55,591 nt of DNA from a virus (IMGVR_UViG_3300032237_001108:1-55591); one strand, 5' to 3'; counted from the first letter of the stretch, positions 24,880 through 38,744 are shown. A program made the numbers and translations. The notes: a model not told the origin generated them from the sequence alone.

Positions 24880-25622
24880 GCCTCCACCTCAGGCCGCGCC
24901 ACCACCGACCGCAACCACTCGGTAGCGGCCTCGTTGTCGTCGTAGAAATGGCCGTGAGCCTCGGTGCCTCCGAGCATCAGCCCGGCGACTTCCGAGCCAA
25001 CTGCAGCCTCCAGCAACCGGCCCACCTCTCCGGCCTGGTCAATCAACCAGCCGCCAATGCCGTAAGCGGTGGAGCAGCTGTGACACGTTTTCATCTCCAA
25101 CGCACCATCAGCAAGCGCTGCAGTGGCGGCAGCCCTGAGCCTCTGGGGAGCGTCGGCTGCGATGGCCAGCCCCAAGGTCCCGCTTAGGTTGGCGCCGCTC
25201 AGGTTGGCGCCGCTCAGGTTGGCGCCGGTCAGGTTGACGCCGCTCAGGTCGGCGTCGGTCAGGTCGGCGTCGGTCAGGTCGGCGCCGGCCAGGTCGGCGT
25301 CGGTCAGGTCGGCGCCGGCCAGGTTGACGCCGGCCAGGTTGACGCCGGCCAGGTTGACGCCGCTCAGGTCGGCGTCGGTCAGGTTGGCGTCGGTCAGGTT
25401 GGCGCCGCTCAGGTTGGCGCCGCTCAGGTTGGCGCCGATCAGGTTGACGCCGCGCAGGTCGGCGCCGATCAAGTTGGCGCCGATCAAGTTGGCGCCGATC
25501 AGGTTGGCGCCGATCAGGTTGGCGCCGGTCAGGTTAACGCGTTGACCCTCCGGGTCGAAAGCGAGCCAGCGGACGTGGCTGGCGAGGATTTCGATCAGGT
25601 TGATTGTGGATGGTTCAGCCAT
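24876..25622 (-). CDS. Pentapeptide-repeat protein with a non-repeat C-terminal domain
   Basis: About 24 consecutive A(D/N)LxG-type pentapeptides (GANLIGANLIGANL...DADLTDADLSGVNLAG...) followed by a roughly 100-aa unique domain. Confidence 0.9.
   Translation of the reverse strand: MAEPSTINLIEILASHVRWLAFDPEGQRVNLTGANLIGANLIGANLIGANLIGADLRGVNLIGANLSGANLSGANLTDANLTDADLSGVNLAGVNLAGVNLAGADLTDADLAGADLTDADLTDADLSGVNLTGANLSGANLSGANLSGTLGLAIAADAPQRLRAAATAALADGALEMKTCHSCSTAYGIGGWLIDQAGEVGRLLEAAVGSEVAGLMLGGTEAHGHFYDDNEAATEWLRSVVARPEVEA
25184..25540. repeat. Tandem 15-bp near-identical DNA repeats (coding for the pentapeptide array)
   Basis: caggttggcgccgct / caggtcggcgtcggt / caggttgacgccggc units repeat head-to-tail across about 360 bp. 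Confidence 0.9.
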
Positions 25623-26016: not shown

Positions 26017-26186
26017 CGGCGCTGTTCTTGCTGTACGAAACGGGTTGAACAAGTGAATACCAGCGGCAATACGGCCATCGCCAGCAAGGCCCCAACAACG
26101 CAGCCGGCTGCAAATTGCGCCGCTAGTCGCGCTCCCCTCAGACTAGGGGGATCGGGGGCGATGATCACCACGGGGGGCTTCTTCAT
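26013..26186 (-). CDS. Hypothetical 57-aa membrane protein
   Basis: Below the track cutoff. MKKPPVVIIAPDPPSLRGARLAAQFAAGCVVGALLAMAVLPLVFTCSTRFVQQEQRR. ATGA overlaps at both ends. Confidence 0.45.
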   Translation of the reverse strand: MKKPPVVIIAPDPPSLRGARLAAQFAAGCVVGALLAMAVLPLVFTCSTRFVQQEQRR

Positions 26187-26347
26187 TGCTCTGCTGCCTT
26201 CCTAAACAGCCGGCGCAGCTCCACGGCATTGGGATGGCCCCAAGGCAACACGGAGCGTTGGAGCATGGCTGCCGCATCGGGCATCACCTTGGGGCGCGGT
26301 GCGGGCCTTGGTTCAGGCCTTGGAGGCGGCGGGGCGGTGGGTGTCAT
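26183..26347 (-). CDS. Hypothetical Pro-rich 54-aa protein
   Basis: An internal ATG at 26347 is preceded by an exact motif II (CAACCAGCGAACC ATG). The track start at 26377 is also possible. Confidence 0.4.
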   Translation of the reverse strand: MTPTAPPPPRPEPRPAPRPKVMPDAAAMLQRSVLPWGHPNAVELRRLFRKAAEQ

Positions 26348-26349
26348 GG

Positions 26350-26360
26350 TTCGCTGGTTG
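26350..26360 (-). promoter_or_regulatory. Motif II copy (CAACCAGCGAA), minus strand
   Basis: Exact 11-mer, 2 nt upstream of ATG 26347. Confidence 0.55.
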
Positions 26361-26379
26361 AAGACTGGGATAAGCATAG

Positions 26380-26553
26380 CTATTTGGTGCCGGTCTGGAT
26401 AGGGATACCTTCAGCCAATAACCTCGCCACCTCTCGGCCGCTGATCACCCGGTCGTATCGGGCCTGCAGCAGCAGGGCAAGCGTGTAGGGGTGCCGGCCG
26501 GGGTGCTCGCGGGCGATGGTGGAGACCATCTCGGCGGGGGTGGTGGTGCTCAC
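26380..26553 (-). CDS. Hypothetical 57-aa protein
   Basis: GTGA overlap with the stop of 26550..27278. MSTTTPAEMVSTIAREHPGRHPYTLALLLQARYDRVISGREVARLLAEGIPIQTGTK. Confidence 0.4.
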   Translation of the reverse strand: MSTTTPAEMVSTIAREHPGRHPYTLALLLQARYDRVISGREVARLLAEGIPIQTGTK

Positions 26554-27278
26554 GGCTGGCCCTTCTTGACGGCGAAGGCCTCCTCAAGGATCCGGTGAAC
26601 TCCCGCGCTGTCTCCCCAATGTGTTCTGCCGCCATTGGCGAGCCCGTGCATCGCCTCGCATAGGCGGTAATAAGCCGGGATCAAGTCCCACAGCATCCGC
26701 GCCATCACGTTGGCCCGCTCGATCTCCTGCTGCTCCAACAGGTCGCGCCAGAGTTGCCGGGCCAGCTCCAGATCACCGCGAAACGCCCGCACCAGGGGGA
26801 ACAGAGCCTGCGCTTCCTCCGCCATGCCGCTGCCGATCGCGTCATAGGCCTTGCGGTAGCGGCTCAGCACCTGAAGGTGGGATTCGGCCAGGGCGGCGGT
26901 GGACTCCTGCTGCTTGCCCAGCACCTCGGGGTTGATGACCTTGGCGGTGCTGGCCGGGGAAGGTGACTGCGGCGCTCGCGGCGGAGCTGGAGGCTTCGGC
27001 GCTTGTGGGGTGGGTGGCGCGGTGCGTTTCGGCTTGCCCTTCCGGCCCTTGCTGCGGTCGTAGGCCTCGGCTCGCTTTTTCCAGTTGAACCGAGCAGCGA
27101 CCTTGCCAATCGCCTGATGTGAAATCCCCAGGATCTTGGCCAGGGTTGTCAGGGTTCGATCAGGGCCAAGCTCCAGGAACTGCACAAAACGGTCGTAAGC
27201 CTCGGCGGACTCCTCAAGGCCTCTGCAGCCCTGTCCCTGGTCCCAGATCGCAGCCAAGGAGAGTCCCGGTCCTGACAA
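26550..27278 (-). CDS. HTH protein heading the leftward operon (terminase small subunit candidate or regulator)
   Basis: RTLTTLAKILGISHQAIGKVAARFNWKKRAEAYD resembles TerS-type N-terminal HTH segments. It is the first gene of the operon that later contains terL. Function uncertain. Confidence 0.45.
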   Translation of the reverse strand: MSGPGLSLAAIWDQGQGCRGLEESAEAYDRFVQFLELGPDRTLTTLAKILGISHQAIGKVAARFNWKKRAEAYDRSKGRKGKPKRTAPPTPQAPKPPAPPRAPQSPSPASTAKVINPEVLGKQQESTAALAESHLQVLSRYRKAYDAIGSGMAEEAQALFPLVRAFRGDLELARQLWRDLLEQQEIERANVMARMLWDLIPAYYRLCEAMHGLANGGRTHWGDSAGVHRILEEAFAVKKGQP

Positions 27279-27286
27279 GGATTTTA

Positions 27287-27339
27287 GGGTTGCAGCGCAA
27301 CCCAGGGGCGCAGCCAGTCGCGCAACCGCTTGCGCAACC
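27287..27339. promoter_or_regulatory. Operator-like palindromes in the divergent control region
   Basis: GGGTTGCagcGCAACCC (27287-27303) and GCGCAAccgcTTGCGC (27320-27335). GCGCAACC occurs three times (27295, 27320, 27332). Confidence 0.45.
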
Positions 27340-27510
27340 CCCTCGCCCTGACCCCGATCCAGACACGCACAAAACGAGATAGCCTGTCCCGTACCGGAGG
27401 CCCGCCAACAGAAAACCCGACCTTTCGGCCGGGCCCTCCGTGATCGTCTCCCCCGAAGCTTTGCCGGCAGAAAGGGGAGGGATCAGTTATCAACTACCCC
27501 ATGATTCTAC

Positions 27511-28116
27511 ATGAAAGAACTACCAACAGGGCACCTCGGCTTCACGGCGGTCCCCACCTGGCTCTTGGGCCAGGCCAGCCCGATCGAGCTGGCGGTCTTA
27601 CTGGCCATCCAAGAGGCGCCGGATCAGCAGATCAGCCTCACCGATCTGGGCAGCAAGGCGGGCGTGTGTCGCCGGACAGCCAGCAACGCACTGGCAAAAA
27701 TGGCAGCCCGCGGCTGGCTGGCCAAGGAGGTGACAACCGAGGAGGACGGGGCGATCGGGCCGAACCGCTACGTCCTGAGGATCTGGGGCGACCTGGCAGA
27801 GGCACCCGAGCAACCCCCCAGCCCACCGCAGCCACAGAGGCGCGAACGGAGCGAACGGGAAAACGGAGCGGTGCCCATTGCCCTGATGGCCGCCTGCTCC
27901 GTCAAGAAGGGCGCCCTGTTCGTCTACCTGGCTCTCCAGTTGTTTGAGGCGCCAACGATCAGCACTCTTGCCACGGTCTGCTGTATGGCCCCCGAGGACG
28001 TGCGGGTGGCACTGAAGTTCTTGGAGGAGGGCGGCTGGATCCAACGGATTGACCGACCGGGCAGCAGCAGCCTGTTTCGGGTGTTCTTTGAGCGCGTCGG
28101 CGCTCGCCGGGGCTGA
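27511..28116 (+). CDS. Winged-helix DNA-binding protein (first rightward gene)
   Basis: LGFTAVPTWLLGQASPIELAVLLAIQE...ISLTDLGSKAGVCRRTASNALAKMAARGWL. Paralogous to the N-terminus of the next gene. Confidence 0.6.
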   Translation: MKELPTGHLGFTAVPTWLLGQASPIELAVLLAIQEAPDQQISLTDLGSKAGVCRRTASNALAKMAARGWLAKEVTTEEDGAIGPNRYVLRIWGDLAEAPEQPPSPPQPQRRERSERENGAVPIALMAACSVKKGALFVYLALQLFEAPTISTLATVCCMAPEDVRVALKFLEEGGWIQRIDRPGSSSLFRVFFERVGARRG

Positions 28117-28126
28117 GGTGGTGACG

Positions 28127-29245
28127 ATGAACAAACCTCAGAACCAGCAGCCACGGTGCTGCAGCGAAGCGGCCGGCAACAGGGTCGCAGGGTTCACGTG
28201 CCTGCCGAACTGGCTGTTTGGCCAAGCCACGGCGCAGGAGCTGGTGATGCTCTTGGCGCTGCAGCACCACGCCCCGAACATTCACCCGAGCCTGGCCACG
28301 CTGGCGCGGGTGTCGGGGCTGGGAAAAAGCACGGTTTGCCGGATCTTGCTTGGCCTGAAGGAGCGCGGATGGCTGAGGACAGAGCGCCGGGCGACAGATG
28401 GCGGGGGAAACAATTCGACCTCCTACCACCTGCTGATCTGGGCCATTGAACCGCCCTCAGCCATTGTCCCAGAGCGGGACAACTTGTCCCAGAGCGGAGG
28501 GGGGCTTGTCCCGGAGCGGGACATAAACAAGATGAATCTAAGAATAAAAACTAAACCAACAGCCTTAGAACCCCCCTTACCCCCCGCTGCGCGGGGGGAG
28601 CGCCGGCCCGAGGCCGTCGCCGCTCGCCCGTGTCGTGATCGGGATGGGTTCCTGATCCCGAATCCAGGCCCGCAACCGCAGGCCACCCCGGAGCAACCCG
28701 CAGAGCCTCCGGCAGCCGTGCAGCCGCAGCCGCAACAGCCGCAGGCCCCCAGGCCATTGCCCGAGCCGGCGCAAGATCCCGAGGCGATCGTCCCGGTCAA
28801 GCCGAAGGCCCGGAAGCGAGAGGCTGGGTTTGCGCCGGCCCACCAGGATGTTCCGGCGGCGCTGCTGCCGGTGATTCGCGAACTGCTCGCGTTCTGGCCG
28901 GCGCGGAAGGGCGCCAAGACCTTTGCGGCCTGGGAGCTGCTCTGCAGCGAGCTGAAGCGGATCCAAGACCACCCGCAGGGCGGAACCGAGATCGTGCGGG
29001 GGCAACTGGAGGCGGGCACGACAGCCGGCATTGACGGCAAGGCCTGGCAATCAATCCGGTTCAGCAACTGGCTCAACTACGGCACCAAGGCCGGCGCCCC
29101 GGCAAGCGGCGCGAGGTTCCAGGGCAAGCGCTCCACGATGGACCGGGTGATGGGCGCCATCGCCCTGGTTGAGAAACGCGAGCGCGAGGCGGCAGCAGCT
29201 CAGCGGGCGGAGATCGGCGGGCTGGTGCTCGCGGAGGTTGCCTGA
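28127..29245 (+). CDS. Winged-helix DNA-binding protein, replication-initiator-like (372 aa)
   Basis: Start at MNKPQNQQ. GFTCLPNWLFGQATAQELVMLLALQHH...SLATLARVSGLGKSTVCRILLGLKERGWL. Pro/Gln-rich linker and a unique C-terminal domain. Confidence 0.6.
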   Translation: MNKPQNQQPRCCSEAAGNRVAGFTCLPNWLFGQATAQELVMLLALQHHAPNIHPSLATLARVSGLGKSTVCRILLGLKERGWLRTERRATDGGGNNSTSYHLLIWAIEPPSAIVPERDNLSQSGGGLVPERDINKMNLRIKTKPTALEPPLPPAARGERRPEAVAARPCRDRDGFLIPNPGPQPQATPEQPAEPPAAVQPQPQQPQAPRPLPEPAQDPEAIVPVKPKARKREAGFAPAHQDVPAALLPVIRELLAFWPARKGAKTFAAWELLCSELKRIQDHPQGGTEIVRGQLEAGTTAGIDGKAWQSIRFSNWLNYGTKAGAPASGARFQGKRSTMDRVMGAIALVEKREREAAAAQRAEIGGLVLAEVA

Positions 29246-30000
29246 TGACCATCACGATGCGGGATTTCGTCCCAGCGATGGGGTTCCTGTGCGAAATGCT
29301 GCCGATGCAGCGAGCGCTGAGCGATGAAGCTCTGGCGATGGCGTGGGAAACCATGCCCGGCGCGGCGAAAATCCACCTGACGCGGGAATCCTTGGCGTTT
29401 GCGGTGAAGCAACGGCTGGTGGATCCGGCGCCGCCGAAGGAGCAGGCGTTGCACGTCCAGCTGCTGCGGTACGTGTTCCCGGTGGAGCGCACCGTGAAGC
29501 GCGAGCGGGGTGAGGAGGTGAACTGCGATCGGGCGCTGTTGGAGGGCGGGCTACGGGCTGATCTGGCCGAGCGCATGGCCGCCCCTGACCGGTTCCACGA
29601 TCCAGCCCCAGTGCGCCATGAGCAGGCCCCACCGCAGCGGCCGAGGCTGCCCAGTGGCGGGCGGGCGTGGCATCCGAGCGAGATGACGGCGCAGCAACAC
29701 GCGGCGCACCTGGAGCGGGTTGCGGCGGCGATGCAGCGCCTACGGGAGCGCGGTGGTGATGGCCGCGTTTTGAGCGCGGGGCAACTGGCCCAGGGCCGGT
29801 GGTGGTTTCAGCGCTGCCTCAATGGCTTTTGGCCGCTTGAATGCGACGACGGGGGCATTGCTGGGGCGTGGATCCTGGCCAATGGCCGCCAGGCAGATGC
29901 CCTGCTGCAGCAGGCGCAAAGTGCTCCGGGGCTCCTGCCGCCGGCTGAGGGTTTGGCCGTTGCAGGGCTGACGGGCCAGGGGGTGAACCCATGGCGGTGA
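29245..30000 (+). CDS. Hypothetical protein (251 aa)
   Basis: TGATG junction with the upstream gene. No family recognised. Confidence 0.55.
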   Translation: MTITMRDFVPAMGFLCEMLPMQRALSDEALAMAWETMPGAAKIHLTRESLAFAVKQRLVDPAPPKEQALHVQLLRYVFPVERTVKRERGEEVNCDRALLEGGLRADLAERMAAPDRFHDPAPVRHEQAPPQRPRLPSGGRAWHPSEMTAQQHAAHLERVAAAMQRLRERGGDGRVLSAGQLAQGRWWFQRCLNGFWPLECDDGGIAGAWILANGRQADALLQQAQSAPGLLPPAEGLAVAGLTGQGVNPWR

Positions 30001-30656
30001 CCACACAAGGCGGCTGGTTGGTGGGCGATGCGGTGCCCGAGCCGGCCGATGGACTCTATTGGCACCCCGATCGCGGGATGCGGGTGTTGATGCCAGCAAG
30101 GGCGATCGTCGATGCGGCTTTCCCGTCGCAAAGGGGCGCCCCGGAGCGGTGCCGGTTGTGCCGGGCGGCGATTGCAAGCCATGCCCGCAGCCTGTGGGGC
30201 CCCTCGGCGACGGCAAAACCATGGGCGCCAAGCTCACGAACGTTTGACCCGGCCCGTCCGGCGGTGGAGGCCCTGGTTAGCCATGGCTTCTGGAAACGGG
30301 TTGAGGTGGTGGGCTCGCTGCTGCACGTGGCGGTGCTGCGGCACGAGGCGGCCACATCCGTGGACCTGGCAGTGCGGTTTGAGGATGGTGGGCTGGGCTT
30401 GCTGGCGGTCTGGAGCGGACCGGATAAGCGCATCCACCCGCTGGCGCCATGGGCGGAGCTGGGGGCAGCGGTGGCCGCGTTGGCGGATTCAGGGATCCCG
30501 CTGGCCAAGGCGGTGGTGGTGTGGGTGGATGACGGCGCCGTGAAGCTGGAGGCCAGGCCAGCGGATGAAGCGCTGGGGGTTTGGGTGGATGCAACGGACC
30601 TAGAGCGGGCTAGGCGGCGGCATTTTCCGCAGGGGGTGGCTCATGGCCGCTCCTGA
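29991..30656 (+). CDS. Hypothetical protein (221 aa)
   Basis: 10-nt overlap with the upstream gene. No family recognised. Confidence 0.5.
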   Translation: MAVTTQGGWLVGDAVPEPADGLYWHPDRGMRVLMPARAIVDAAFPSQRGAPERCRLCRAAIASHARSLWGPSATAKPWAPSSRTFDPARPAVEALVSHGFWKRVEVVGSLLHVAVLRHEAATSVDLAVRFEDGGLGLLAVWSGPDKRIHPLAPWAELGAAVAALADSGIPLAKAVVVWVDDGAVKLEARPADEALGVWVDATDLERARRRHFPQGVAHGRS

Positions 30657-31188
30657 TGCCTGTCACGATCGCCATCAGCGCCGCGAGGATGGCCCTACGG
30701 CAGTCCTTAAGGGCTGCCCTGGTGTGGAGAGCGCCGGAGATGGGGAGAAGCCCGCTGCAAGGCCGCAGAGCGTCACGTTTCGCGTGGAGGGCATGGCGCC
30801 GGCTCCGCAGGGGTCAAAGCGGCACGTGGGCGGCGGCGTGATGATCGAGTCGTGCAAAGCCGTCAAGCCCTGGCGGCTACTGGTGGCTCAGTCCGCCATC
30901 GCGGCGAGGGTGCCCCTGCTGCGGGGGCCGGTGCGGCTATCGCTGGTGTTCCTGTTCCCCAGGCCGGCAGGGCACTACCGGAAGAACGGCACCCTCAAGC
31001 CCTCGGCGCCCGCCTATCACGCGGTCAAACCGGACGGGTCAAAGCTCCAGCGCTCCACCGAAGACGCCCTGAGCGGGCTGGTGATCGAGGACGACGCCCG
31101 GATTGTCGGAACCGTCTGGGACAAGCGCTACTGCGTCGGCAGCGAGCGGCCGGGGGCACTGATCACGGTGATCCAGCTTGCTGCATAG
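30643..31188 (+). CDS. rusA: RusA-family Holliday junction resolvase
   Basis: VTFRVEGMAPAPQGSKR...LSLVFLFPRP...KPDGSKLQRSTEDALSGLVIEDDARIV matches the RusA pattern (kPD.DN..K...DaL.g....DD..i). Confidence 0.7.
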   Translation: MAAPDACHDRHQRREDGPTAVLKGCPGVESAGDGEKPAARPQSVTFRVEGMAPAPQGSKRHVGGGVMIESCKAVKPWRLLVAQSAIAARVPLLRGPVRLSLVFLFPRPAGHYRKNGTLKPSAPAYHAVKPDGSKLQRSTEDALSGLVIEDDARIVGTVWDKRYCVGSERPGALITVIQLAA

Positions 31189-31246
31189 GCATACGGTTTC
31201 CCGCACTACTCCCGCTGTAATCGCTACCCTTATGACAGATAGGTAG

Positions 31247-31257
31247 CAACCAGCGAA
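31247..31257 (+). promoter_or_regulatory. Motif II copy (CAACCAGCGAA)
   Basis: Exact 11-mer, 3 nt upstream of ATG 31261; preceded by GACAGATAGG. Confidence 0.55.
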
Positions 31258-31260
31258 GCT

Positions 31261-31443
31261 ATGTCCACTCTCAGGCAACCAGTTCCAACCCGTGTCACGA
31301 TCACGGTTCCGTTTCAGGTGTTTGCGCAGCTGCGGGACCGCGCCGATCAGGAGGGGCGCAGCACGAGCAATCTGGCCGCGTTTCTTTTGGAGCGCTCCCT
31401 AAGGCCCGTTTTACAGGCCCCACCGCGAGACATGGTGTCTTAA
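31261..31443 (+). CDS. Ribbon-helix-helix (CopG/Arc-like) DNA-binding protein
   Basis: RVTITVPFQVFAQLRDRADQEGRSTSNLAAFLLERSL has the beta-alpha-alpha RHH pattern. Confidence 0.65.
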   Translation: MSTLRQPVPTRVTITVPFQVFAQLRDRADQEGRSTSNLAAFLLERSLRPVLQAPPRDMVS

Positions 31444-31446
31444 CAG

Positions 31447-31472
31447 CAAAAAGGGGCCCTCAGTGGGCCCCC
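31447..31472 (-). terminator. Rho-independent terminator for the acidic-protein gene
   Basis: Minus strand reads GGGGGCCC-actga-GGGCCCC followed by TTTTT. Confidence 0.65.
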
Positions 31473-31505
31473 ATGCGTACCTGTCGGACAGGCAGTGGCT
31501 CAGGA

Positions 31506-31916
31506 TCAGGCGGCTTCCGCGTGATCCTCTTCCCCTTCCCATTCGGCGGCAATCACTTCGCCGCCCTCGCCTTCGCCGCCCTGGTCTTCGTCGGGATCTT
31601 CGCCAAGATCAACCTCGGCCAGGATCTGCGCCCCAATCTGGAGCCGCTCCAAAATGGCCACGGTGGTGGGATCGGCGGCGATCTCATCAGCCTCCAGGTC
31701 TTCGGTCAGCTCGGCGGCTACCTCGGCGATGGAGCACAGGGCCAGCTCAATGAAGTCGGCAGGGGCAAAGCCCAAGTCGGCGGCCAGGGCAAGCGCTTCG
31801 GCCACGGGCACGGTCGGGCCATCGTCGGCTTGCATGTCGTCTTCGGCACCGTCCTGCTCCTGATCAAACGGTGGGCGCTCCGCCAAGGGAGCGGACACAT
31901 CGAGGGCTTCAGTCAT
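31506..31916 (-). CDS. Strongly acidic protein (136 aa)
   Basis: Asp/Glu-rich throughout (..DQEQDGAEDDMQADDG...EDLEADEIAAD...DLGEDPDEDQGGEGEGGE..EWEGEEDHAE). A lone leftward gene inside the rightward block. Confidence 0.6.
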   Translation of the reverse strand: MTEALDVSAPLAERPPFDQEQDGAEDDMQADDGPTVPVAEALALAADLGFAPADFIELALCSIAEVAAELTEDLEADEIAADPTTVAILERLQIGAQILAEVDLGEDPDEDQGGEGEGGEVIAAEWEGEEDHAEAA

Positions 31917-32186
31917 GGGTTTGACGCTGGTCCCGCCAATTATGCCTGTCCAGACCCTGAAGGGCTATGCCGTGGCCCTGAATTGCTACTGTTACAAAGC
32001 GCAATGCTTGAGAATCGGGGCGGGGTGGGCGATCTGAGGGAGGCGCAGCCGCGCCTGTTGCCAGTTACCCAATTCATACCCTAATCTCTGGTTGTGGTGA
32101 TGGCCCACTTGCCAGCCACGCAGAAAACCAGCCCCGGAGAGGCCTTGTGAGGCCCCGGCGCTTTCGTCCCCACCGCAACACGAACC

Positions 32187-32375
32187 ATGGCCTCTATCTC
32201 CTGCATCCTGTTTTGGGTTTTTGTGCCCCTGCTGATCGCTTCGGCGGTCGTCGCCTGGGCGCTCGAAACCGACCGGGAGCGGGCCCGCCGCTGGCGCCGC
32301 TCTGGCCTCAGCCAGCAGAAAATCGCTGATCGCCTCGGCCGCAGCCGCTGGCAGGTTCGGCAGCTGCTTGCCTGA
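32187..32375 (+). CDS. Small membrane-anchored HTH protein (62 aa)
   Basis: N-terminal hydrophobic SCILFWVFVPLLIASAVVAWAL followed by SGLSQQKIADRLGRSRWQVRQLL (HTH-like). Preceded by GCAACACGAACC ATG, a degenerate motif II. Confidence 0.45.
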   Translation: MASISCILFWVFVPLLIASAVVAWALETDRERARRWRRSGLSQQKIADRLGRSRWQVRQLLA

Positions 32376-32417
32376 TCCAACGCGGCCCGCCGGAGCCGCA
32401 CCCAATCCGGCCACCGT

Positions 32418-32428
32418 CAACCAGCGAA
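32418..32428 (+). promoter_or_regulatory. Motif II copy (CAACCAGCGAA)
   Basis: Exact 11-mer, 7 nt upstream of GTG 32436. Confidence 0.55.
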
Positions 32429-32435
32429 ACCGACA

Positions 32436-32621
32436 GTGAACCTCTACGAAGTCCGCTCCTTTGCCCACGACACGATCAAGGCTGCGCATGATGCAGGCCG
32501 TCACCACGAGGCGTTTGGCCTCGGCGACCGCCTCTATGAGATCGGCTACCAGCCCACCCCAGAGGCGGCGGCAAAGGTCCAGGCCTGCGCTGAGCACCTG
32601 GCGGCTTCCCTGGCTGCCTGA
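32436..32621 (+). CDS. Hypothetical 61-aa protein
   Basis: ORF with a motif II copy upstream. Confidence 0.45.
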   Translation: MNLYEVRSFAHDTIKAAHDAGRHHEAFGLGDRLYEIGYQPTPEAAAKVQACAEHLAASLAA

Positions 32622-32681
32622 TCATCCACGGCCAGCCGGGAGCCCATCCCGGCAACCCATCCACCACCACATCCCCCGCCC

Positions 32682-32882
32682 ATGGCCTACTCCTTCTTCC
32701 GCCGCGGTTTCTGCGTCTACTGGCACGAGGATCCCGCGACCCTGGAGCGTGCTCACCACCGCGCTGCGACCGAAGAAACCCAGCGTGGCTTTGCCCAGCC
32801 GGGTCCGATTGAGACGACCGATCTGCACCCCAGCCGACTCACGACCCAGGGCGCCGCGCAAGCGTGGCGGGTCAATGCCTGA
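32682..32882 (+). CDS. Hypothetical 66-aa protein
   Basis: ORF-track entry; overlaps the next small ORF start (ATG 32875). Confidence 0.35.
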   Translation: MAYSFFRRGFCVYWHEDPATLERAHHRAATEETQRGFAQPGPIETTDLHPSRLTTQGAAQAWRVNA

Positions 32883-33042
32883 ACCCCTCCCCTACCGCGT
32901 CACCCTGTCCGCCCTTGCTGGCCCTGTGACGCTCGATCTGATCGCCAGTAGCCGCGCTACCGCGATCCTGGCCGCCCAAGAGCTCACCGGCTTAGGACAT
33001 CGCGCCACCGTCGCCCGTTGCGCTCGTCTCGGGGACTGGTGA
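32875..33042 (+). CDS. Hypothetical 55-aa protein
   Basis: MPEPLPYRVTLSALAGPVTLDLIASSRATAILAAQELTGLGHRATVARCARLGDW. The start overlaps the upstream stop. Confidence 0.35.
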   Translation: MPEPLPYRVTLSALAGPVTLDLIASSRATAILAAQELTGLGHRATVARCARLGDW

Positions 33043-33214
33043 TCGCTGCGCCAAGGCCCCTGATCCGCCGCACCAATCAACTGCACTATCACCCGCCAGG
33101 CACCATTCGGTCGCCTGGCGGTTTTGCTGTGGAGATTGACTTCGATCTATGGCCGCTTGTGGCGCCCCTGGTGCCGTTACTGGAGGAGGTGGAGCGCGTG
33201 GAGGCCTTGGCGGC

Positions 33215-33224
33215 TGGGAAAACT
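33215..33224 (+). promoter_or_regulatory. Motif I near-copy on the plus strand (TGGGAAAACT)
   Basis: 9 of 10 positions match (GGGAAAACT exact) and it is followed by GCAGCAG. It lies 16 nt upstream of ATG 33241. Confidence 0.5.
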
Positions 33225-33240
33225 GCAGCAGGATCGCCGG

Positions 33241-33438
33241 ATGCCAATGGCCAAGAAGAAACCGACCACCCAGGGGCAGAAGGCCTTGGCTAAGACGATG
33301 CACGAATGGAAGGCGGGGACGCTTCATAGCGGCAAGGGTGGCCCGGTGGTCAAGTCGCAGAAACAAGCCGTGGCCATCGCCCTCAGCCAAAAAGCCCGCG
33401 CCAGCAAGCCAGGACCGAAGACGAAAAAGAAGCGCTGA
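33241..33438 (+). CDS. Small basic protein (DUF6496-like)
   Basis: MPMAKKKPTTQGQKALAKTMHEWKAGTLHSGKGGPVVKSQKQAVAIALSQKAR resembles the MHEFK.G.L.SG....V.SRKQAIAIALSEA family as I recall it. Confidence 0.55.
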   Translation: MPMAKKKPTTQGQKALAKTMHEWKAGTLHSGKGGPVVKSQKQAVAIALSQKARASKPGPKTKKKR

Positions 33439-33486
33439 TTGCTTGTCGCCACAGTGCAGGATAAGATTGCTATTGCTTGTGCAATC
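33437..33486 (+). promoter_or_regulatory. Operator-like repeats upstream of the cyAbrB-like gene
   Basis: GATTGCTTGT (33437-33446), ATTGCTTGT (33472-33480) and the palindrome GATTGC-N10-GCAATC (33465-33486), ending 9 nt before ATG 33496. Confidence 0.45.
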
Positions 33487-33495
33487 TGATTTCGC

Positions 33496-33930
33496 ATGAC
33501 CGCGACCCTATCCGCGCCACCCGCTGAGCAAATAGCTCCCGCCGCCCCCGCGCCTTCCGCCCCTCTGGCCGGTGCCGACCTCCTGGCTAAGGTCAAAGAG
33601 CTGGGCGACGCCTCAAAGACCGATCTGGCCCGCGCCTGCGGTTACGTCAGCACCAAGAAAAACGGTGCGGAGCGCGTCAACTTCACGGCCTTCTATGAGG
33701 CCATGCTGGAGGCCAAGGGCGTCAGCCTCAGCGAGGGTGGCAGCAGTGCGGCCGGCAAGCCTGGCCGGAAGCTGAGCTACACCACAAAAGTGCAGTTCAA
33801 TGGAAACCTCATGGTCGGCAAGGCCTACACCGCCATGCTTGGCTTGGAGCCTGGCGACGAGTTTGAGATCAAACTCGGCCGCAAACAGATTCGGCTGGTG
33901 CCCGTAGGAGCCGCCGATAGCGACGATTGA
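33496..33930 (+). CDS. Cyanobacterial AbrB-like (cyAbrB) transcriptional regulator homolog
   Basis: The C-terminal KVQFNGNLMVGKAYTAMLGLEPGDEFEIKLGRKQIRLVP is a SpoVT/AbrB swapped-hairpin motif. The N-terminal LLAKVKELGD.SKTDLARACGYVS...VNFTAFYEAMLEAKGVSL matches the cyanobacterial CalA/cyAbrB layout. Confidence 0.75.
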   Translation: MTATLSAPPAEQIAPAAPAPSAPLAGADLLAKVKELGDASKTDLARACGYVSTKKNGAERVNFTAFYEAMLEAKGVSLSEGGSSAAGKPGRKLSYTTKVQFNGNLMVGKAYTAMLGLEPGDEFEIKLGRKQIRLVPVGAADSDD

Positions 33931-33956
33931 ACCCTGTCCAGACAGGCGCCAGATTC

Positions 33957-33980
33957 AGGGGGCTATGGCCCCTCTTTTTT
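33957..33980 (+). terminator. Rho-independent terminator after the cyAbrB-like gene
   Basis: AGGGG-gctatgg-CCCCT followed by CTTTTTT. Confidence 0.65.
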
Positions 33981-34028
33981 ATGGTGCGACCTGTATCCTT
34001 TCTCCGGCGGTTCACCATCGCCCAGAAG

Positions 34029-34064
34029 GCCTCCCCGGTTGGCTTCGCTGGTTGACGGGGAGGC
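34029..34064. other. 9-bp hairpin presenting an orphan motif II copy in its loop
   Basis: GCCTCCCCG (34029-34037) pairs with CGGGGAGGC (34056-34064). The 18-nt loop contains TTCGCTGGTTG (34044-34054), which is CAACCAGCGAA on the minus strand. Confidence 0.5.
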
Positions 34065-34217
34065 TTTCTGCTGCTCTGCTGCGCTTGCGCCTCAGAATCA
34101 AGCAACTCGGTAGCCTGCCCGCAACAGTGCAGTTCGGAACAGGGGACAAGGTAAATGGCTCGATCTGATTTTTCCGGCAGTGAGCATGGCCTGGACCGCC
34201 TAGCCGGCGGGATCGTC

Positions 34218-34910
34218 ATGTTTTCCCGTGCGGTGCGGATGCTGCTGGCTCGCAACAACCTCACCCATGAGCAGCTGGTGAAGCTTTCCCAATGGTCGAA
34301 TCCATGGGGAATGACCTGGCTATCAACCTCTCAGGTCAGCTATCTGCGGACCGGACAGCTCAAAAAAGCCGGCCCCCAGACCATTGACGCCCTCGGACAG
34401 GTCAACCTGAGGCTTGCCCAAGCGGCCGGGGCTGTCTCTCCCGGCGTGGATAATCTGCCCGACTTCGGCCCGCTCCCGAGCACCCTGGGGCTGCCGGACG
34501 AGCCGTTCTTCCTGCGGCACCCAGACAGCCATGAGCCGCTTGATGCCGGTGGGCTCTACTTGGTCTGGATCGGCCGCCTGACGCCCGAGGCGATAGAGGA
34601 GGGACACATCAGCGACATGGAGGGCCGGCGGCTCTCAGGCAACCTTTCGCGCATCGTGCAGGGCTGGGCCAGGGATCGGAAGCTGACGATCGGCCAGGCG
34701 CTGGAGCAAGCCCTCACCGCCTACGGGGTGGTGGAGGAGAGCAGGCGGCAGCGCCTGAAGTCGGTGGTGGTTGGGTTCGAGGTCTTTACCGGTGCCGAAC
34801 TGGATCAGGAGCTGCCTGCCCTGGGGGCGATGCTGGGCGCCCTGGACGGTGACGGGCCCATCGACCCGTCCGACGTGCGGGAGCGGCTCTACCGGCTGCC
34901 GAAGGACTGA
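34218..34910 (+). CDS. XRE-like HTH protein (230 aa)
   Basis: Start set to ATG 34218. MFSRAVRMLLARNNLTHEQLVKLSQW is HTH-like. Stand-alone unit after a 237-nt gap. Confidence 0.5.
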   Translation: MFSRAVRMLLARNNLTHEQLVKLSQWSNPWGMTWLSTSQVSYLRTGQLKKAGPQTIDALGQVNLRLAQAAGAVSPGVDNLPDFGPLPSTLGLPDEPFFLRHPDSHEPLDAGGLYLVWIGRLTPEAIEEGHISDMEGRRLSGNLSRIVQGWARDRKLTIGQALEQALTAYGVVEESRRQRLKSVVVGFEVFTGAELDQELPALGAMLGALDGDGPIDPSDVRERLYRLPKD

Positions 34911-35125
34911 TCGCGCTCCTCGCGTCGCCTCAGTATGTCCTCCATCCGTTCGTTGAGGCTGGCGCATCGGGCAGCCGGCGAGAGGCCGCCCCGGGGGGAG
35001 AGCAGGCGGCGCCCATCGGGTAAGCACAGTTCGATTTCCACCATGGGCCCCAAGCAGTAGGCCATGGCCCGCAGACGGGCTTCCACAATCGCCGCCTCTG
35101 CGGGGGAATCAATCAGGACTCGCAT
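34889..35125 (-). CDS. Hypothetical 78-aa protein, convergent with the HTH gene
   Basis: Start set to ATG 35125 (MRVLIDSPAEAAIVEARLRAMAYCLG...). The track start at 35179 would translate the C13 tract. Confidence 0.4.
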   Translation of the reverse strand: MRVLIDSPAEAAIVEARLRAMAYCLGPMVEIELCLPDGRRLLSPRGGLSPAARCASLNERMEDILRRREERDQSFGSR

Positions 35126-35143
35126 CAGATCAGGCGGCTTCGC

Positions 35144-35156
35144 GGGGGGGGGGGGG
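35144..35156. repeat. Homopolymer G13 (C13 on the minus strand)
   Basis: cgc ggggggggggggg cac read directly. It lies 18 nt upstream of ATG 35125 on the minus strand. Confidence 0.9.
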
Positions 35157-35313
35157 CACACATTGGAAAGGCTCTGCAAATCAGCAGCAGACTAGCTGCG
35201 TCCCCGCTGGGCCAATCCGTATCAGGATAGCCCGTCCAATGTGTCGCGATGTTGCATTGCTTACCCCATTCCGGCCCATGTCCCGATAGGCTAGCGGCGC
35301 CCGAAGGGGCACC

Positions 35314-35324
35314 CAACCAGCGAA
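35314..35324 (+). promoter_or_regulatory. Motif II copy (CAACCAGCGAA)
   Basis: Exact 11-mer, 7 nt upstream of ATG 35332 (recT). TGTCCCGATAGG lies at 35279-35290. Confidence 0.55.
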
Positions 35325-35331
35325 ACCACTA

Positions 35332-36615
35332 ATGACCAGTTCCATGGTGCGCCGCAACGGCTCCGGGCCGATGCAGCGCCAGCAACCCGCCGGCCGGATG
35401 GCCCCCGCGGGTGGCGCAGTCAACACGATTGAAGACTTGCTCAAAAAGCACGGTGCGGAGATTGCCCTCGCCCTTCCGCAGCACGTCACGCCAGAGCGGC
35501 TGCTTCGGATCGCCCTGTCTGAGGTGCGCCGCAATCCGCGGCTTGCCCAGTGCTCCGCGCCCAGCCTGTTGGGGGCGATTTTCACGTGCGCTCAGCTTGG
35601 CCTGGAGCCCGGCGGGGCCCTGGGCCATTGCTTCTTGATTCCCTACCGGGATGAATGTCAGTTTCAGATTGGCTACAAAGGCATGATCGAATTGGCCCGC
35701 CGTTCGGGTCAGATTCAAAGCCTTTCCGCTCGCTCCGTCTACGAAAACGACCATTTCGACTACAGCTACGGACTGCACGAAGATCTTGTGCATCAACCGG
35801 CTACCGGTGAGCGGGGCGAGCTGACCCACGCTTATGCCGTTGCCAAGCTCGTGGATGGCGGCATTCAGTTTGAAGTGATGGATCGCCACGAACTGGAAGA
35901 GATACGCGACGGCAGCCAGGGCTATCAAACCGCAGTCAAATACAACAAGAAAGATTCGCCTTGGATTTCATCGTTTGATGAAATGTGCCGCAAAACGGTG
36001 ATTCGGCGGATGTTCAAGTATCTGCCGGTGTCCATTGAGCTGGTCAAGGCGGCCAGCCTGGACGAGCGGGCCGATAAGGGCCAGCGGCAGGAGACTGACC
36101 TCGACCACCTGTTGCTCCCGGCCGAGGTGCCCGCAGCACCCCCCGCCATTGCTGCCGCTGCCGCCCCTGTCGCGACACTCACCGAACAGCAGCAGCAGCA
36201 GCTTGTGACCGCCCTGGAGCGACAGCTGAGCCCCGTGGGTCAAGCCGCCTATTTGGTTGATGCTTGCCAAGCTTTCGGGGTGGATGCCCTGGAGGCGATC
36301 CCGGCAGAGCATCACAGCGCACTGATGCAGAGCCTGGCCAACGCGGGCAGCCGCGAACGCTGGAATCGAGGCTGTGGGCATGTGGATGGTGAGCCCCTGC
36401 TGAGCACCGAGCAGATCGCAGACCTCAGCCTCCAAGCCCCCGAGGCAGCCAAGGAGGCTTTGCAGCAGCCGGCGCCGCAGCGTGCCGCCAAGCAAGCCCC
36501 CAGGGCTGCCGCTCCTGCCCCCGCTTCAGAGCCTGCCCCGGAGCCCGCCCCGGCCCCGGCCGAAGCTGAGCAGGAGGAGCCCGGCGATGAGCTCATTCAG
36601 TCGGAGCTGGTGTGA
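35332..36615 (+). CDS. recT: RecT-family single-strand annealing recombinase with Ala/Pro/Glu-rich C-terminal extension
   Basis: SLLGAIFTCAQLGLEPGGALGHCFLIPY...CQFQIGYKGMIELARRSG...AVAKLVDGGIQFEVM...SPWISSFDEMCRKTVIRRMFKYLPVS matches RecT. Confidence 0.85.
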   Translation: MTSSMVRRNGSGPMQRQQPAGRMAPAGGAVNTIEDLLKKHGAEIALALPQHVTPERLLRIALSEVRRNPRLAQCSAPSLLGAIFTCAQLGLEPGGALGHCFLIPYRDECQFQIGYKGMIELARRSGQIQSLSARSVYENDHFDYSYGLHEDLVHQPATGERGELTHAYAVAKLVDGGIQFEVMDRHELEEIRDGSQGYQTAVKYNKKDSPWISSFDEMCRKTVIRRMFKYLPVSIELVKAASLDERADKGQRQETDLDHLLLPAEVPAAPPAIAAAAAPVATLTEQQQQQLVTALERQLSPVGQAAYLVDACQAFGVDALEAIPAEHHSALMQSLANAGSRERWNRGCGHVDGEPLLSTEQIADLSLQAPEAAKEALQQPAPQRAAKQAPRAAAPAPASEPAPEPAPAPAEAEQEEPGDELIQSELV

Positions 36616-36791
36616 TGGTCGCCCTTGTTCCTGCCGATCTGACCGTGCCGGAGGAGGAGATCCTCCGGCGGGCGGACGGAGACACATCCTCCGCCCTGCG
36701 GATCGCAGCAGCCTACGGCTATGAACTTGCCTGTCGCGACCTGGATAAGGCAACCACGTTCAAAAAAGAGGCTCCTCAATGCAGTCAGTAA
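36615..36791 (+). CDS. Hypothetical 58-aa protein
   Basis: TGATG junction with the recT stop. MVALVPADLTVPEEEILRRADGDTSSALRIAAAYGYELACRDLDKATTFKKEAPQCSQ. Confidence 0.4.
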   Translation: MVALVPADLTVPEEEILRRADGDTSSALRIAAAYGYELACRDLDKATTFKKEAPQCSQ

Positions 36792-36976
36792 TTTTCCTTG
36801 TTGTTGGGGTTCTTATTGGATGCGTTGCACGTAAAAAGGTATTTGATGAAACGTGGCACGCTGGATATATAGAAGGTGTCCGCTATGGCAACCATGAAAA
36901 CGTTTTCCTAAGGCGGCGCATTATTCATCTAGAAGCTCAGGCCCGTCAACTGAAACGCACTGGGGTAAAGGCATGA
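36779..36976 (+). CDS. Small membrane protein (65 aa), AT-richer
   Basis: MQSVIFLVVGVLIGCVARKK has an N-terminal transmembrane segment. ATGA overlap with the sigma gene start. Confidence 0.45.
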   Translation: MQSVIFLVVGVLIGCVARKKVFDETWHAGYIEGVRYGNHENVFLRRRIIHLEAQARQLKRTGVKA

Positions 36977-37818
36977 GGGCGATTGATCAATTTTATCTAG
37001 ACTCCTACGGCCGAGTCCCGCTGCTCACCGCAAAGGAAGAGATTGTTTTAGCCAGGGCAATACAAAAAGCAAGCGAGCCAGGCGCAACACTGCGGGAAAA
37101 GCGGGCTGGAATACGTGCAAAAAAGCGCATGATTCAGGCCAACATGCGTTTAGCGGTCAACATGGCGATGAAGTTTTTGCCACGCTGCAGCACGCTTGAT
37201 CTTCATGATCTTGTGCAAGAAGCAGCGTTCGGTATCAACCTCGCCGCCGAAAAGTTTGACCCAGAGCGCGGCTACAAGTTTTCCACCTATGCGTATTGGT
37301 GGATTTGGCAGATCTTAAACCGTGCGATTACGTCCCAGGATCGGTCCATTCGTATCCCTGTCAACGCGGCGGAAAGCCTGGCCAAGATGTTTCGTCTGAC
37401 CCAGGACGCAGCGGCCAAGGGTAAGCCGATCAGCGAAGCCGAAGCAGCCAAGGCGGCGAATATCCCGCTTGCTAATGCTCACGCGGCTTTGCTGGCTCTA
37501 GGTGTTCACTCGTTAAACTACATGAAGCACGGAATTGATACCGAGATCATTGATCTTTTAGAAGCGCCAGCTTCTGATGATTATTTCAGTGATCTGGGGG
37601 TCAGCCGGGCGGAGCTGTTGGAGATTGTCAATCAGCTTCCAACGCAGGAGGCCTATGTCGTGGGTTCCTTTTTTGGCCTCCACGGCGAGGCGCCGCAAAG
37701 CCTCACCCGCATCGGAAAGGATCTTGGCATCAATCGCCAGGTGGTCACTCTGCGCAAGGACAAAGCGCTGAACCGCATCCGCCGCGCCATCTATCACACC
37801 CACGGAATCACCGCATGA
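36973..37818 (+). CDS. Sigma-70-family RNA polymerase sigma factor (regions 2, 3 and 4 recognisable)
   Basis: MIQANMRLAVNMAMKF....LDLHDLVQEAAFGINLAAEKFDPERGYKFSTYAYWWIWQILNRAI covers regions 2.1-2.4. SLTRIGKDLGINRQVVTLRKDKALNRIRR is a region 4.2 HTH. The gene is visibly AT-richer than its surroundings. Confidence 0.85.
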   Translation: MRAIDQFYLDSYGRVPLLTAKEEIVLARAIQKASEPGATLREKRAGIRAKKRMIQANMRLAVNMAMKFLPRCSTLDLHDLVQEAAFGINLAAEKFDPERGYKFSTYAYWWIWQILNRAITSQDRSIRIPVNAAESLAKMFRLTQDAAAKGKPISEAEAAKAANIPLANAHAALLALGVHSLNYMKHGIDTEIIDLLEAPASDDYFSDLGVSRAELLEIVNQLPTQEAYVVGSFFGLHGEAPQSLTRIGKDLGINRQVVTLRKDKALNRIRRAIYHTHGITA

Positions 37819-37955
37819 CTCGTCTTCACCTCCTGGGGTTCTTGATTGCCCCCTTGATTGCTCTGCCCTGCATCTGGCACGGCCAAAGGATGGTCAACCC
37901 AGAGGCCCGGCTGTTGCTGGTGCCTGATGCCGCCCTGCAAGCGTTGCAACGATGA
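37815..37955 (+). CDS. Hypothetical 46-aa membrane/signal peptide protein
   Basis: Below the track cutoff. MTRLHLLGFLIAPLIALPCIWHGQRMVNPEARLLLVPDAALQALQR. ATGA overlaps at both ends. Confidence 0.45.
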   Translation: MTRLHLLGFLIAPLIALPCIWHGQRMVNPEARLLLVPDAALQALQR

Positions 37956-38341
37956 CAACTCCCGCCATCACCGTTGCGAACCTGGCCCAGCTGTTGTGCC
38001 AGTGGCCTCACCATGGTGCCAATGGGCAACCCACAACCGTGCTTTTGGGGGATCGGTTCCCTGATGCAGCCGCTGGTCCCCTGCCAGCCATTGCGGCCGG
38101 CGCTGTTGAGCTGGACGACGGCGGGCGGCAGCATCTGGTGCTGTTTCCCGAGCAGCATCAGGTACCGGCCGGGTCCGCTGCCGACCATGCTGATGCCCTG
38201 GATTTGGCGCTGGCCGCGCTCAATTATCAGCTCACCACTCCATTGGATCGCTACGACCCTTGTAGGGCTAGTGAACTGATGGTAAGGGCCGTTACAGCTA
38301 TTGAAACAATCAAGCGCCTAGAGCGACGCCTTTCCCTATGA
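37952..38341 (+). CDS. Hypothetical protein (129 aa)
   Basis: ORF coupled to the upstream small ORF. No family recognised. Confidence 0.5.
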   Translation: MTTPAITVANLAQLLCQWPHHGANGQPTTVLLGDRFPDAAAGPLPAIAAGAVELDDGGRQHLVLFPEQHQVPAGSAADHADALDLALAALNYQLTTPLDRYDPCRASELMVRAVTAIETIKRLERRLSL

Positions 38342-38367
38342 TCAACCCGTGTCCCGATAGGGATTGC

Positions 38368-38378
38368 CAACCAGCGAA
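38368..38378 (+). promoter_or_regulatory. Motif II copy (CAACCAGCGAA)
   Basis: Exact 11-mer, 7 nt upstream of ATG 38386. TGTCCCGATAGG lies at 38350-38361. Confidence 0.55.
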
Positions 38379-38385
38379 AACCCCA

Positions 38386-38616
38386 ATGACCCTCACCTTT
38401 CCGGCCGCGCCGCCCCAGCCGCGAGCGATGGCCCTTGATCTCTTTGACGAACTGGATCAGATCAGCAGCCAGGCCGAGGCTGTGGCCACAGAGCTCCGCC
38501 GCCTGGGGCTGAGCCCCGCGATCCTGGAGCAACTGCAGCCGGGCGCAGGGGCCACGGCGCAGAAAATCACGTGCCGGCTTGAAACCGCCGCCGAGGCCGC
38601 TCGGGGGCTGGGATGA
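38386..38616 (+). CDS. Hypothetical 76-aa protein
   Basis: Start moved to the internal ATG 38386 (MTLTFPAAPPQ...) because motif II sits just upstream. Confidence 0.45.
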   Translation: MTLTFPAAPPQPRAMALDLFDELDQISSQAEAVATELRRLGLSPAILEQLQPGAGATAQKITCRLETAAEAARGLG

Positions 38617-38744
38617 GCGATTTGATCCACTACGACGAGGACGACGAGCTCCCGCCCCGCCGCTGGCCCTGGGATGACCTGGACGACGAACACGAACAGG
38701 CCCCGACCGCTGCCGAACAAAACCCATCAATGCTGCTGCCATGA
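38613..38744 (+). CDS. Hypothetical acidic 43-aa protein
   Basis: MSDLIHYDEDDELPPRRWPWDDLDDEHEQAPTAAEQNPSMLLP. ATGA overlaps at both ends. Confidence 0.4.
   Translation: MSDLIHYDEDDELPPRRWPWDDLDDEHEQAPTAAEQNPSMLLP

Follow-up and report, generated by a model that had tools for sequence, protein, structure and literature searches.

The virus sequence IMGVR_UViG_3300032237_001108 (positions 1-55591; the whole stretch of 55,591 nucleotides (nt) is called the window below) contains six exact copies of the 11-mer CAACCAGCGAA, at 26350 and 34044 on the minus strand and at 31247, 32418, 35314 and 38368 on the plus strand, which raises the question of what a short sequence repeated in this manner is for. 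The chance expectation is a mean of 0.02 copies, none of 100 dinucleotide-preserving shuffles reached six, copies with one mismatch were not found in the window, and matches with up to two mismatches are otherwise at background level (26 found versus 18 expected). Five of the six copies sit 2-7 nt before start codons, namely those of the RHH gene (gct-ATG, 3 nt), orf61 (accgaca-GTG, 7 nt), recT (accacta-ATG, 7 nt), orf76 (aacccca-ATG, 7 nt) and orf54 (cc-ATG, 2 nt). An earlier reading of the window, made from its letters alone (the sequence-only reading), had reported this over-representation, and its coordinates and start-codon spacings are right for all five start-proximal copies. The copy at 34044, which it left uninterpreted, is not at a gene start and is oriented opposite to the flanking genes. 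Here we present evidence that this sixth copy belongs to an element at 34006-34078 which is probably a new phage trans-acting antisense small RNA (sRNA), predicted to occlude the translation-initiation regions of RHH, recT, orf61, orf76 and orf54. This reading accounts for an otherwise puzzling over-represented 11-mer, and two gene starts are corrected in the course of the analysis.

The copy at 34044 is located in a 224-nt gap between two plus-strand genes, past the strong intrinsic terminator (33957..33982, plus strand) of an AbrB-like gene (33496..33930). This terminator consists of a GC hairpin and a T-run, is kept in relatives and stands directly before the putative sRNA promoter, a -10-like TATCCT of the form TAnnnT (33994..33999, plus strand); alignment A1 shows the T, A and final T without variation. 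Upstream of this hexamer no -35 box is visible, and a scan with the sigma-70 consensus promoter was uninformative, as expected for promoters that have no -35 box. Regarding the 10 homologs inspected, TAnnnT is followed in every one by exactly 6 variable nt and then by the GG that opens hairpin 1; the placement of the box 6 nt before hairpin 1 and just after the terminator suggests a primary transcript rather than a processing product. The putative sRNA of about 70 nt (34006..34078, plus strand) comprises hairpin 1 (34006-34022) and hairpin 2 (34023-34070), the latter a long, terminator-like stem with an A-tract and a UUUCUG tract, after which an invariant CUGCUG follows. Its seed loop (34040..34058, plus strand) contains UUCGCUGGUUG at 34044-34054, the exact complement of the 11-mer. 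Every homolog keeps the loop core UCGCUGG unchanged; folding of 9 homologs predicts the apical UCGCU to be unpaired with a probability of about 0.9 and places the 3' half of the seed in a weak, G·U-rich upper stem.

Homologs were gathered by protein-anchored searches, DNA pattern searches and a covariance model built here, which yields a single match in the window (71.8 bits). The element was found in 19 related genomes of uncultivated phages similar to cyanobacterial siphoviruses (20 with the window; relatives are designated by L numbers), exactly once per genome and, in all 19 relatives, on the strand of the flanking genes. It nearly always lies between the AbrB-like gene and a gene for a protein of 251 amino acids (aa). 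The arrangement in L270, where the 251-aa gene is absent and the element is directly upstream of recT, indicates that the element is a separable module. Among 17 distinct sequences, 95.2% of the stem cells are standard pairs and 10 of the 21 pairs have changed on both sides; none of 500 shuffles was as good, slid partners were only 34-58% paired, and the stems covary likewise in a 9-sequence alignment. A conserved secondary structure backed by compensatory changes is characteristic of a trans-acting base-pairing sRNA.

Three lines of evidence lead to a predicted plus-strand transcript, which would carry the complement of the motif and not the motif itself. G·U combinations outnumber A·C combinations in the stems 35 to 1 for the plus strand (9-sequence alignment A2; 10 to 1 in the outer stems), the minimum free energy of the plus-strand fold is -41.7 kcal/mol (z -3.3) versus -33.1 kcal/mol (z -2.0) for the minus strand and thus 8.6 kcal/mol more stable, and the plus strand is also the one that carries the -10 box at its constant 6-nt spacing. 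The same evidence bears on a different reading, in which a translational regulator of the RegA (T4) or CsrA kind, an RNA-binding protein of phage or host, recognises the box in RNA, and the hairpin is a decoy or unrelated. A motif that is sense-oriented and hugs start codons would suit such a protein. A decoy, however, needs minus-strand transcription, and the G·U ratio, the stability gap and the -10 box favour the plus strand; moreover, a decoy of the CsrB/RsmZ type should show the messenger RNA (mRNA) motif, usually many times, whereas there is one hairpin copy per genome and the strand signals indicate that it displays the complement.

The sites complementary to the loop are spread over both strands of the window. 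The RHH leader site (31247..31259, plus strand; gene 31261..31443) has 13 nt complementary to the loop (CAACCAGCGAAGC) and is conserved in L001, L279 and L285-L289. The orf61 site (32414..32428, plus strand; GTG start, 32436..32621) has 15 complementary nt (CCGTCAACCAGCGAA), and the same 15-mer also precedes a different open reading frame (ORF) in L004, L008, L012 and L142. The orf54 site (26349..26360, minus strand; true start ATG 26347, gene 26183..26347) has 12 complementary nt, with homologous sites in L001/L278, L002, L280, L276 and L277. The recT leader site (35314..35324, plus strand; recT 35332..36615; mean predicted probability of being unpaired 0.73) is present in every sRNA-carrying genome whose sequence covers that start, and the recT operon extends to a sigma-factor gene (36973..37818). 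The orf76 leader site (38368..38378, plus strand; true start ATG, 38386..38616) is an exact copy of the 11-mer, and its operon extends to a PDDEXK exonuclease gene (38741..39880). Over the five window leaders, the box is predicted to be accessible, with probabilities of being unpaired of 0.62-0.78.

The two true starts given here for orf54 and orf76 are downstream of the ATGs of longer ORFs, at 26377 and 38338, and had been proposed in the sequence-only reading on account of the motif. They are supported because the longer-ORF ATGs fall inside conserved -10-like hexamers, TATGCT (26378-26373, minus strand) and TATGAT (38337-38342, plus strand), respectively; the shorter N-termini are, in addition, conserved in relatives (MTPTAPPPPRPEPRP versus MAPVASPPPRPEPRP, MTLTFPAAPPQPR versus MTFTIPAAQPQPR). 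The orf76 leader (38337..38364, plus strand) continues from TATGAT into a 5' hairpin, GUCCC-GAUA-GGGAU (38351-38364), the arms of which covary (TGTCCC-GACA-GGGACA in L007, TGTCC..GGACA in L001, AGTCC..GGACT in L003). Similarly, the recT leader (35287..35313, plus strand) has a -10-like TAGGCT (35287-35292) and a 5' hairpin, GGCGCCC-GAAG-GGGCACC (35296-35313); 10 recT leaders show TAGGCT, TAGGGT, TAAGGT or TAGGAT and then a hairpin, GNRA-capped in most. A companion 12-mer, TGTCCCGATAGG, is indeed present at 35279 and 38350, and GACAGATAGG precedes the copy at 31247, but it is not a regular partner of the motif, since the spacing between the two is 3, 6 or 23 nt. It corresponds to two different things, the GNRA-capped covarying 5' hairpin in the orf76 leader and an overlap with the -10 box TAGGnT in the recT leader. 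A sigma-28-type -10 box was tried as an explanation of TGTCCCGATAGG and dropped in view of the covarying hairpin (orf76) and the TAGGnT -10 box (recT) in relatives. A leaderless-mRNA model with the motif itself as -10 box was likewise rejected, the spacing to the start being 2 to 10 nt.

This geometry bears on whether the box might mark the conserved beginning of transcripts or belong to a promoter read by the phage sigma factor (36973..37818). Four of the five sites do follow -10-like hexamers, at distances of a few to about 25 nt, and the phage encodes a factor of the sigma-70 family. The distance from the motif to the start is narrow (2-10 nt), however, and that to the -10-like hexamers or 5' hairpins is variable; no -10 box was found upstream of the orf61 site; sites in L284 are at internal cistrons (the sigma-factor and exonuclease gene starts); the antisense copy in the hairpin would be left unexplained; and the abundant motif CGGGAAAACT is a better candidate for a phage-sigma promoter. 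We regard this explanation as very unlikely.

The sequence-only reading had further pointed out that the motif occupies the place of a ribosome-binding site and does not resemble a Shine-Dalgarno sequence. This is not special to the motif, because Shine-Dalgarno sequences are lacking in most genes of the window phage, and as a ribosome-binding element the motif would serve only the five genes that carry it; the idea that it is such an element of a non-Shine-Dalgarno kind finds no support. Its position and Shine-Dalgarno-like spacing would nonetheless agree with a Shine-Dalgarno substitute or enhancer that pairs with host ribosomal RNA (rRNA), the hairpin mimicking and competing with the rRNA site. 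Most genes have neither a Shine-Dalgarno sequence nor a box, so that the box is not a general solution; CAACCAGCGAA has no GGAGG-like core and no complementarity to the anti-Shine-Dalgarno CCUCC; and the box changes between phages together with their own hairpin loop, which host rRNA could not follow. Pairing with rRNA is scarcely credible on these grounds. Among the roles offered earlier, the tie to gene starts, the short leaders that directly follow promoter-like -10 boxes and, broadly, the binding of a regulator have stood; what was missed is the likely RNA regulator encoded by the sixth copy.

Two degenerate copies had also been claimed. The one before ATG 32187 (32175-32186, GCAACACGAACC) shows only loose similarity to the motif, but the homologous start carries a perfect CAACCAGCGAA in L002, L280 and L290, and for this reason the site may be an eroded target. 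The other, in the leader of a metallophosphoesterase gene, was not located; the nearest candidate, AAACCAGCGGA at 48299, is inside a minus-strand gene.

A search of related phage genomes confirmed that start-proximal sites recur, with 64 of them in 19 of the 20 genomes. Regarding the first 11 loci, all 29 copies outside the sRNA are sense-oriented, and 3-11 nt separate the end of the 10-mer core from an ORF start in each; these ORFs are homologs of recT, orf76, RHH, orf54 and orf61, and conservation of the N-terminus is plain for recT, orf76, RHH and orf54. When the 20 genomes are taken together, nearly all sites complementary to the cognate loop over 9 nt or more lie at starts, and those matching only a 7-8 nt core are mostly scattered background. 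A syntenic, more distant relative with a GC content of 43% (L282) has neither the hairpin RNA nor boxes at gene starts.

Loop and targets change together. The loop of L003 and L284 reads UCGCUGGGUG (UGGGUG), and all start-proximal sites there are CACCCAGCGA or ACCCAGCGA; two of these variant-loop sites are in the covered part of L003, where CAACCAGCGA does not occur, and five are in L284, including those at the starts of the sigma-factor and exonuclease genes. At the flanking position, all 20 sites that face a loop U have target A, target G is confined to genomes with loop C (5 of 23 sites versus 0 of 41 elsewhere), and 12 of the 18 sites that face a loop G have C or U. The 3' flank of the RHH site follows the cognate loop in seven of eight genomes, through A:U, G:C and C:G states. 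Complementarity beyond the universal 7-mer has a mean of 3.95 nt for the cognate loop, compared with 2.84 nt when loops are permuted among genomes (0 of 20000 as high) and 2.61 nt when they are permuted among nine seed classes (2 of 20000 as high), although these permutations ignore the kinship of the genomes, so that the p-values overstate independence. An accessible, conserved seed, several complementary targets and co-variation of seed and targets are together the marks of an sRNA; the complementarity, its conservation, the strand, the structure and the loop-target co-variation are established by these comparisons. As a side observation, L003 carries ACCCAGCG in the region before the start of its 251-aa gene (L003:640-690), 8 nt complementary to its own variant loop, and this gene may be an extra, lineage-specific target.

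Concerted change of all copies is also what an operator set would show. The 10-mer could be a DNA operator for the RHH, AbrB-like, MarR-like or 251-aa helix-turn-helix-like protein, with copies that co-vary through a change of specificity; several small DNA-binding regulators are encoded nearby, and a second element of the window, GTCYSGATAGG, does look operator-like. The site itself is asymmetric, however, with no dyad, and none of the 29 start-proximal copies departs from the sense orientation; its distance to the -10 box is variable (about 10-25 nt) and that to the start codon tight; the odd copy is within a hairpin that covaries and has strand-specific G·U pairs, for which duplex DNA has no need; and the flanking position tracks the loop through three Watson-Crick states. 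An operator is therefore, in our judgment, distinctly improbable. The RNA-binding regulator introduced above would explain why targets in L270 and L291 share a conserved C outside the complementary 8-mer and why the flanking position defaults to A whatever the loop carries, but not why target flanks track the cognate loop, and such a regulator, too, appears improbable.

Several observations weigh against a trans-acting sRNA, in addition to the kinship of the genomes. The flanking position is mismatched in many sites (G is present in only those 5 of the 23 sites with loop C), as is the RHH site of L288. The A-to-C seed switch (position 3), which two genomes show, represents one evolutionary event, and co-variation of the motif copies would equally fit a sequence-specific protein with altered specificity. 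The boxes of a lower-GC lineage, L270 (1380, 4135) and L291 (1167, 2479, 5690, 8446), read (T/A)CACCAGCGA and are complementary over only 8 nt, the extra conserved C shared by the targets being unexplained by pairing. One conserved 10-mer copy in L266 and L269 is within a coding region, antisense to the gene. A genome-wide scan by duplex energy places the true sites high in the list, but G·U-rich background matches with similar scores are numerous, and with a GC content of 65% in the window such a ranking does not discriminate. Finally, the loop of hairpin 2 is about 18 nt long and its U-tract is interrupted, so that it is not a canonical terminator and the 3' end is uncertain; a possible alternative is that the RNA at 34006-34078 forms the leader of the 251-aa gene that follows it.

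For the trans-acting sRNA, the following mechanism is proposed. The RNA would be made from its own -10 promoter as a short 5' hairpin and a long terminator-like hairpin, and the loop of the latter would display UUCGCUGGUUG, with 11-15 nt complementary to the boxes 2-7 nt before the five starts. The always-unpaired apical UCGCU would nucleate on the accessible AGCGA of a leader, and the helix would spread on through the weak, G·U-rich upper stem. Since the resulting duplex would be inside the 30S binding window, initiation would be blocked and the mRNA probably destabilised, and one RNA would in this way co-regulate several transcription units. If the c4 RNA of P1 and P7 (PMC12197685) and sRNAs in general are a guide, the start region should be occluded and translation repressed, possibly with mRNA decay. 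We infer the expression of the sRNA, repression rather than activation, and its timing in the phage life cycle; its biological role could be immunity in lysogens or early-gene shut-off.

A wider proposal, which is tentative and rather doubtful at present, is that the hairpin RNA is the master determinant of immunity or timing in a clade of temperate cyanobacterial siphoviruses, an RNA-only, regulon-wide switch whose seed variants form orthogonal heteroimmunity groups. If so, a single RNA of about 70 nt would silence recombination, sigma-factor and regulator operons at once, and the UGGUUG and UGGGUG types and the flank variants would evolve by concerted change of the seed and 4-6 targets.

The terminal stretches of the window (17-110 and 55485-55580) are repeats of one another, from which it follows that the window is a complete genome assembly, circular or terminally redundant, of about 55.5 kb. 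The window phage is an uncultivated siphovirus resembling cyanophages. No close relative was found by DNA among GenBank phages (INPHARED), and neither the sRNA region nor the sRNA itself matched any INPHARED sequence at the DNA level. Protein matches in INPHARED are distant only and point toward siphoviruses of Synechococcus and Prochlorococcus; the large terminase and the sigma factor are closest to those of S-CBS2, S-CRES, S-CBS1/3, KBS-S-2A and PSS2, which are such siphoviruses. A homolog of the 251-aa protein was found on a contig of a cyanobacterial metagenome-assembled genome. Most window genes have no Shine-Dalgarno sequence, C/A-rich stretches precede starts (e.g., 2002, 17787, 24080, 25622 and 45701), and ccgctaacccATG is seen twice before gene starts of the window; the scarcity of Shine-Dalgarno sequences fits a cyanobacterial host. 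A protein search of genome contigs (genome_contigs) returned no homologs. With a gapped DNA pattern run on genome_contigs and metagenome_contigs, the matches listed were mostly due to chance; the covariance model confirmed only L142 and L201 among them, and no host prophage was recovered among the matches listed.

Genes of the region encode MarR-like helix-turn-helix proteins, RusA, RHH, AbrB-like, RecT, a sigma-70 family factor, a PDDEXK nuclease, a serine recombinase and the small terminase subunit. The 251-aa protein gene (34155..34910), downstream of the putative sRNA, is linked to it in all but one of the 20 sRNA-carrying genomes. The N-terminus of its product (RNNLTHEQLVKLSQWS) looks helix-turn-helix-like, and the protein might be a regulator or partner of the sRNA; sequence searches of Pfam, PHROGs and PDB gave no function for it or for the small target ORFs. 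A minus-strand gene at 24876..25622 has dense 15-nt periodic repeats (25186-25520), which suggests a pentapeptide-repeat protein; the region homologous to this gene in L266 and L269 holds the stray copy of CAACCAGCGA, antisense to the gene.

Two other repeated elements were noted. CGGGAAAACT, probably the element called motif I in the sequence-only reading, is over-represented, with 16-17 copies in the window. Its minus-strand copies, read as AGTTTTCCC on the plus strand, are at 1549, 4252, 7239, 11602, 12166, 13973, 15477, 16684, 19288, 20844, 42246, 44934, 46874, 47751 and 49337. Where checked, the element lies about 23-43 nt upstream of the starts of minus-strand structural or late genes; it may be a late promoter read by the phage's own sigma factor (36973..37818). 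GTCYSGATAGG occurs eight times at up to one mismatch (1.9 expected) and in both orientations, at 26393(+), 27354(-), 31945(-), 33933(-), 34563(+), 35280(+), 38351(+) and 4301(+). It forms a palindrome, CCTGTCCAGACAGG, at 33933, overlaps some -10 boxes and flanks the recT promoter of L270 in two inverted copies; it looks like an operator for a DNA-binding regulator.

We know of no phage trans-acting sRNA in the cyanobacterial host group, and antisense RNAs by which phages control their own genes are, to our knowledge, confined to a handful of enterobacterial phages (c4, CI, sar and OOP). The only cyanophage sRNA in a recent review is the cis-antisense CfrI (PMC12197685). Nothing similar to the element was found in GenBank phages or in the literature searched, where the literal sequences turned up only in primers. 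No Rfam family was reached at gathering scores over the whole window, and the Rfam C4 family gave no match in 33800-34300 even at E<=10, nor did anything else at permissive thresholds; by its sequence and structure (covariance model), the RNA is thus not a member of C4. If the present reading is true, an unrelated sRNA family exists in uncultivated, apparently cyanobacterial temperate siphoviruses. Its design would be unusual, with a single loop seed directed at 4-6 start-proximal boxes in separate operons on both strands, a sigma-factor operon included, and its natural seed and target variants would be ready-made orthogonal pairs that hint at how RNA-based specificity groups evolve.

Beyond phages, the cyanobacterial sRNA Yfr1 is short, forms two hairpins and uses an ultraconserved seed of about 11 nt (ACUCCUCACAC, in a single-stranded linker) against several mRNA translation-initiation regions, in organisms that make little use of Shine-Dalgarno sequences. 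Yfr1 is host-encoded, whereas the putative RNA here is phage-encoded and has its seed in a loop; the sequences are unrelated, and there is no Rfam match. The plasmid RNAs CopA (R1) and RNA I (ColE1) start recognition with an exposed loop on an imperfect or bulged upper stem, from which the helix propagates. Loop-first recognition is likewise proposed here; unlike the putative RNA with its several targets, however, CopA and RNA I are cis-encoded and fully complementary to a single target. The sar RNA of P22 and the OOP RNA of lambda are antisense RNAs of phages, too, and act post-transcriptionally to repress phage regulatory genes (PMC12197685). Both are cis-encoded, overlap a single target and are fully complementary to it, whereas the RNA described here would be trans-encoded, with a seed of 10-15 nt and several targets.

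CI RNA of satellite phage P4 and CB RNA of N15, which belong to the same Rfam C4 family as c4, are RNA immunity factors: a short seed, seqB, pairs with repeated complementary boxes of the phage transcripts, seqA and seqC. They are processed by RNase P and act by ending transcription prematurely. The short seed here similarly matches repeated complementary boxes. Unlike those of CI and CB, however, these boxes abut start codons, which points to translation control rather than transcription termination, and the Rfam search revealed no homology of sequence or structure. The c4 RNA is processed from the operon transcript of its targets and controls a single operon (icd-ant), and differences in loop and target between P1 and P7 create specificity (heteroimmunity). 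Natural seed and target variants, UGGUUG and UGGGUG, are likewise found here, whereas the putative RNA differs from c4 in appearing to own a promoter, in having 4-6 targets in separate units on both strands, and in that no antirepressor was identified among its targets. As a small phage RNA of the immI region, c4 has loops complementary to the surroundings of a ribosome-binding site, by which translation is blocked (PMC12197685). This trait, a loop seed complementary to repeated boxes near the ribosome-binding site, is shared by the element at 34006-34078 with its UUCGCUGGUUG and five boxes. What would be new is an sRNA family with a multi-operon target set in cyanophage-like phages, the principle itself being known from c4 and CI.

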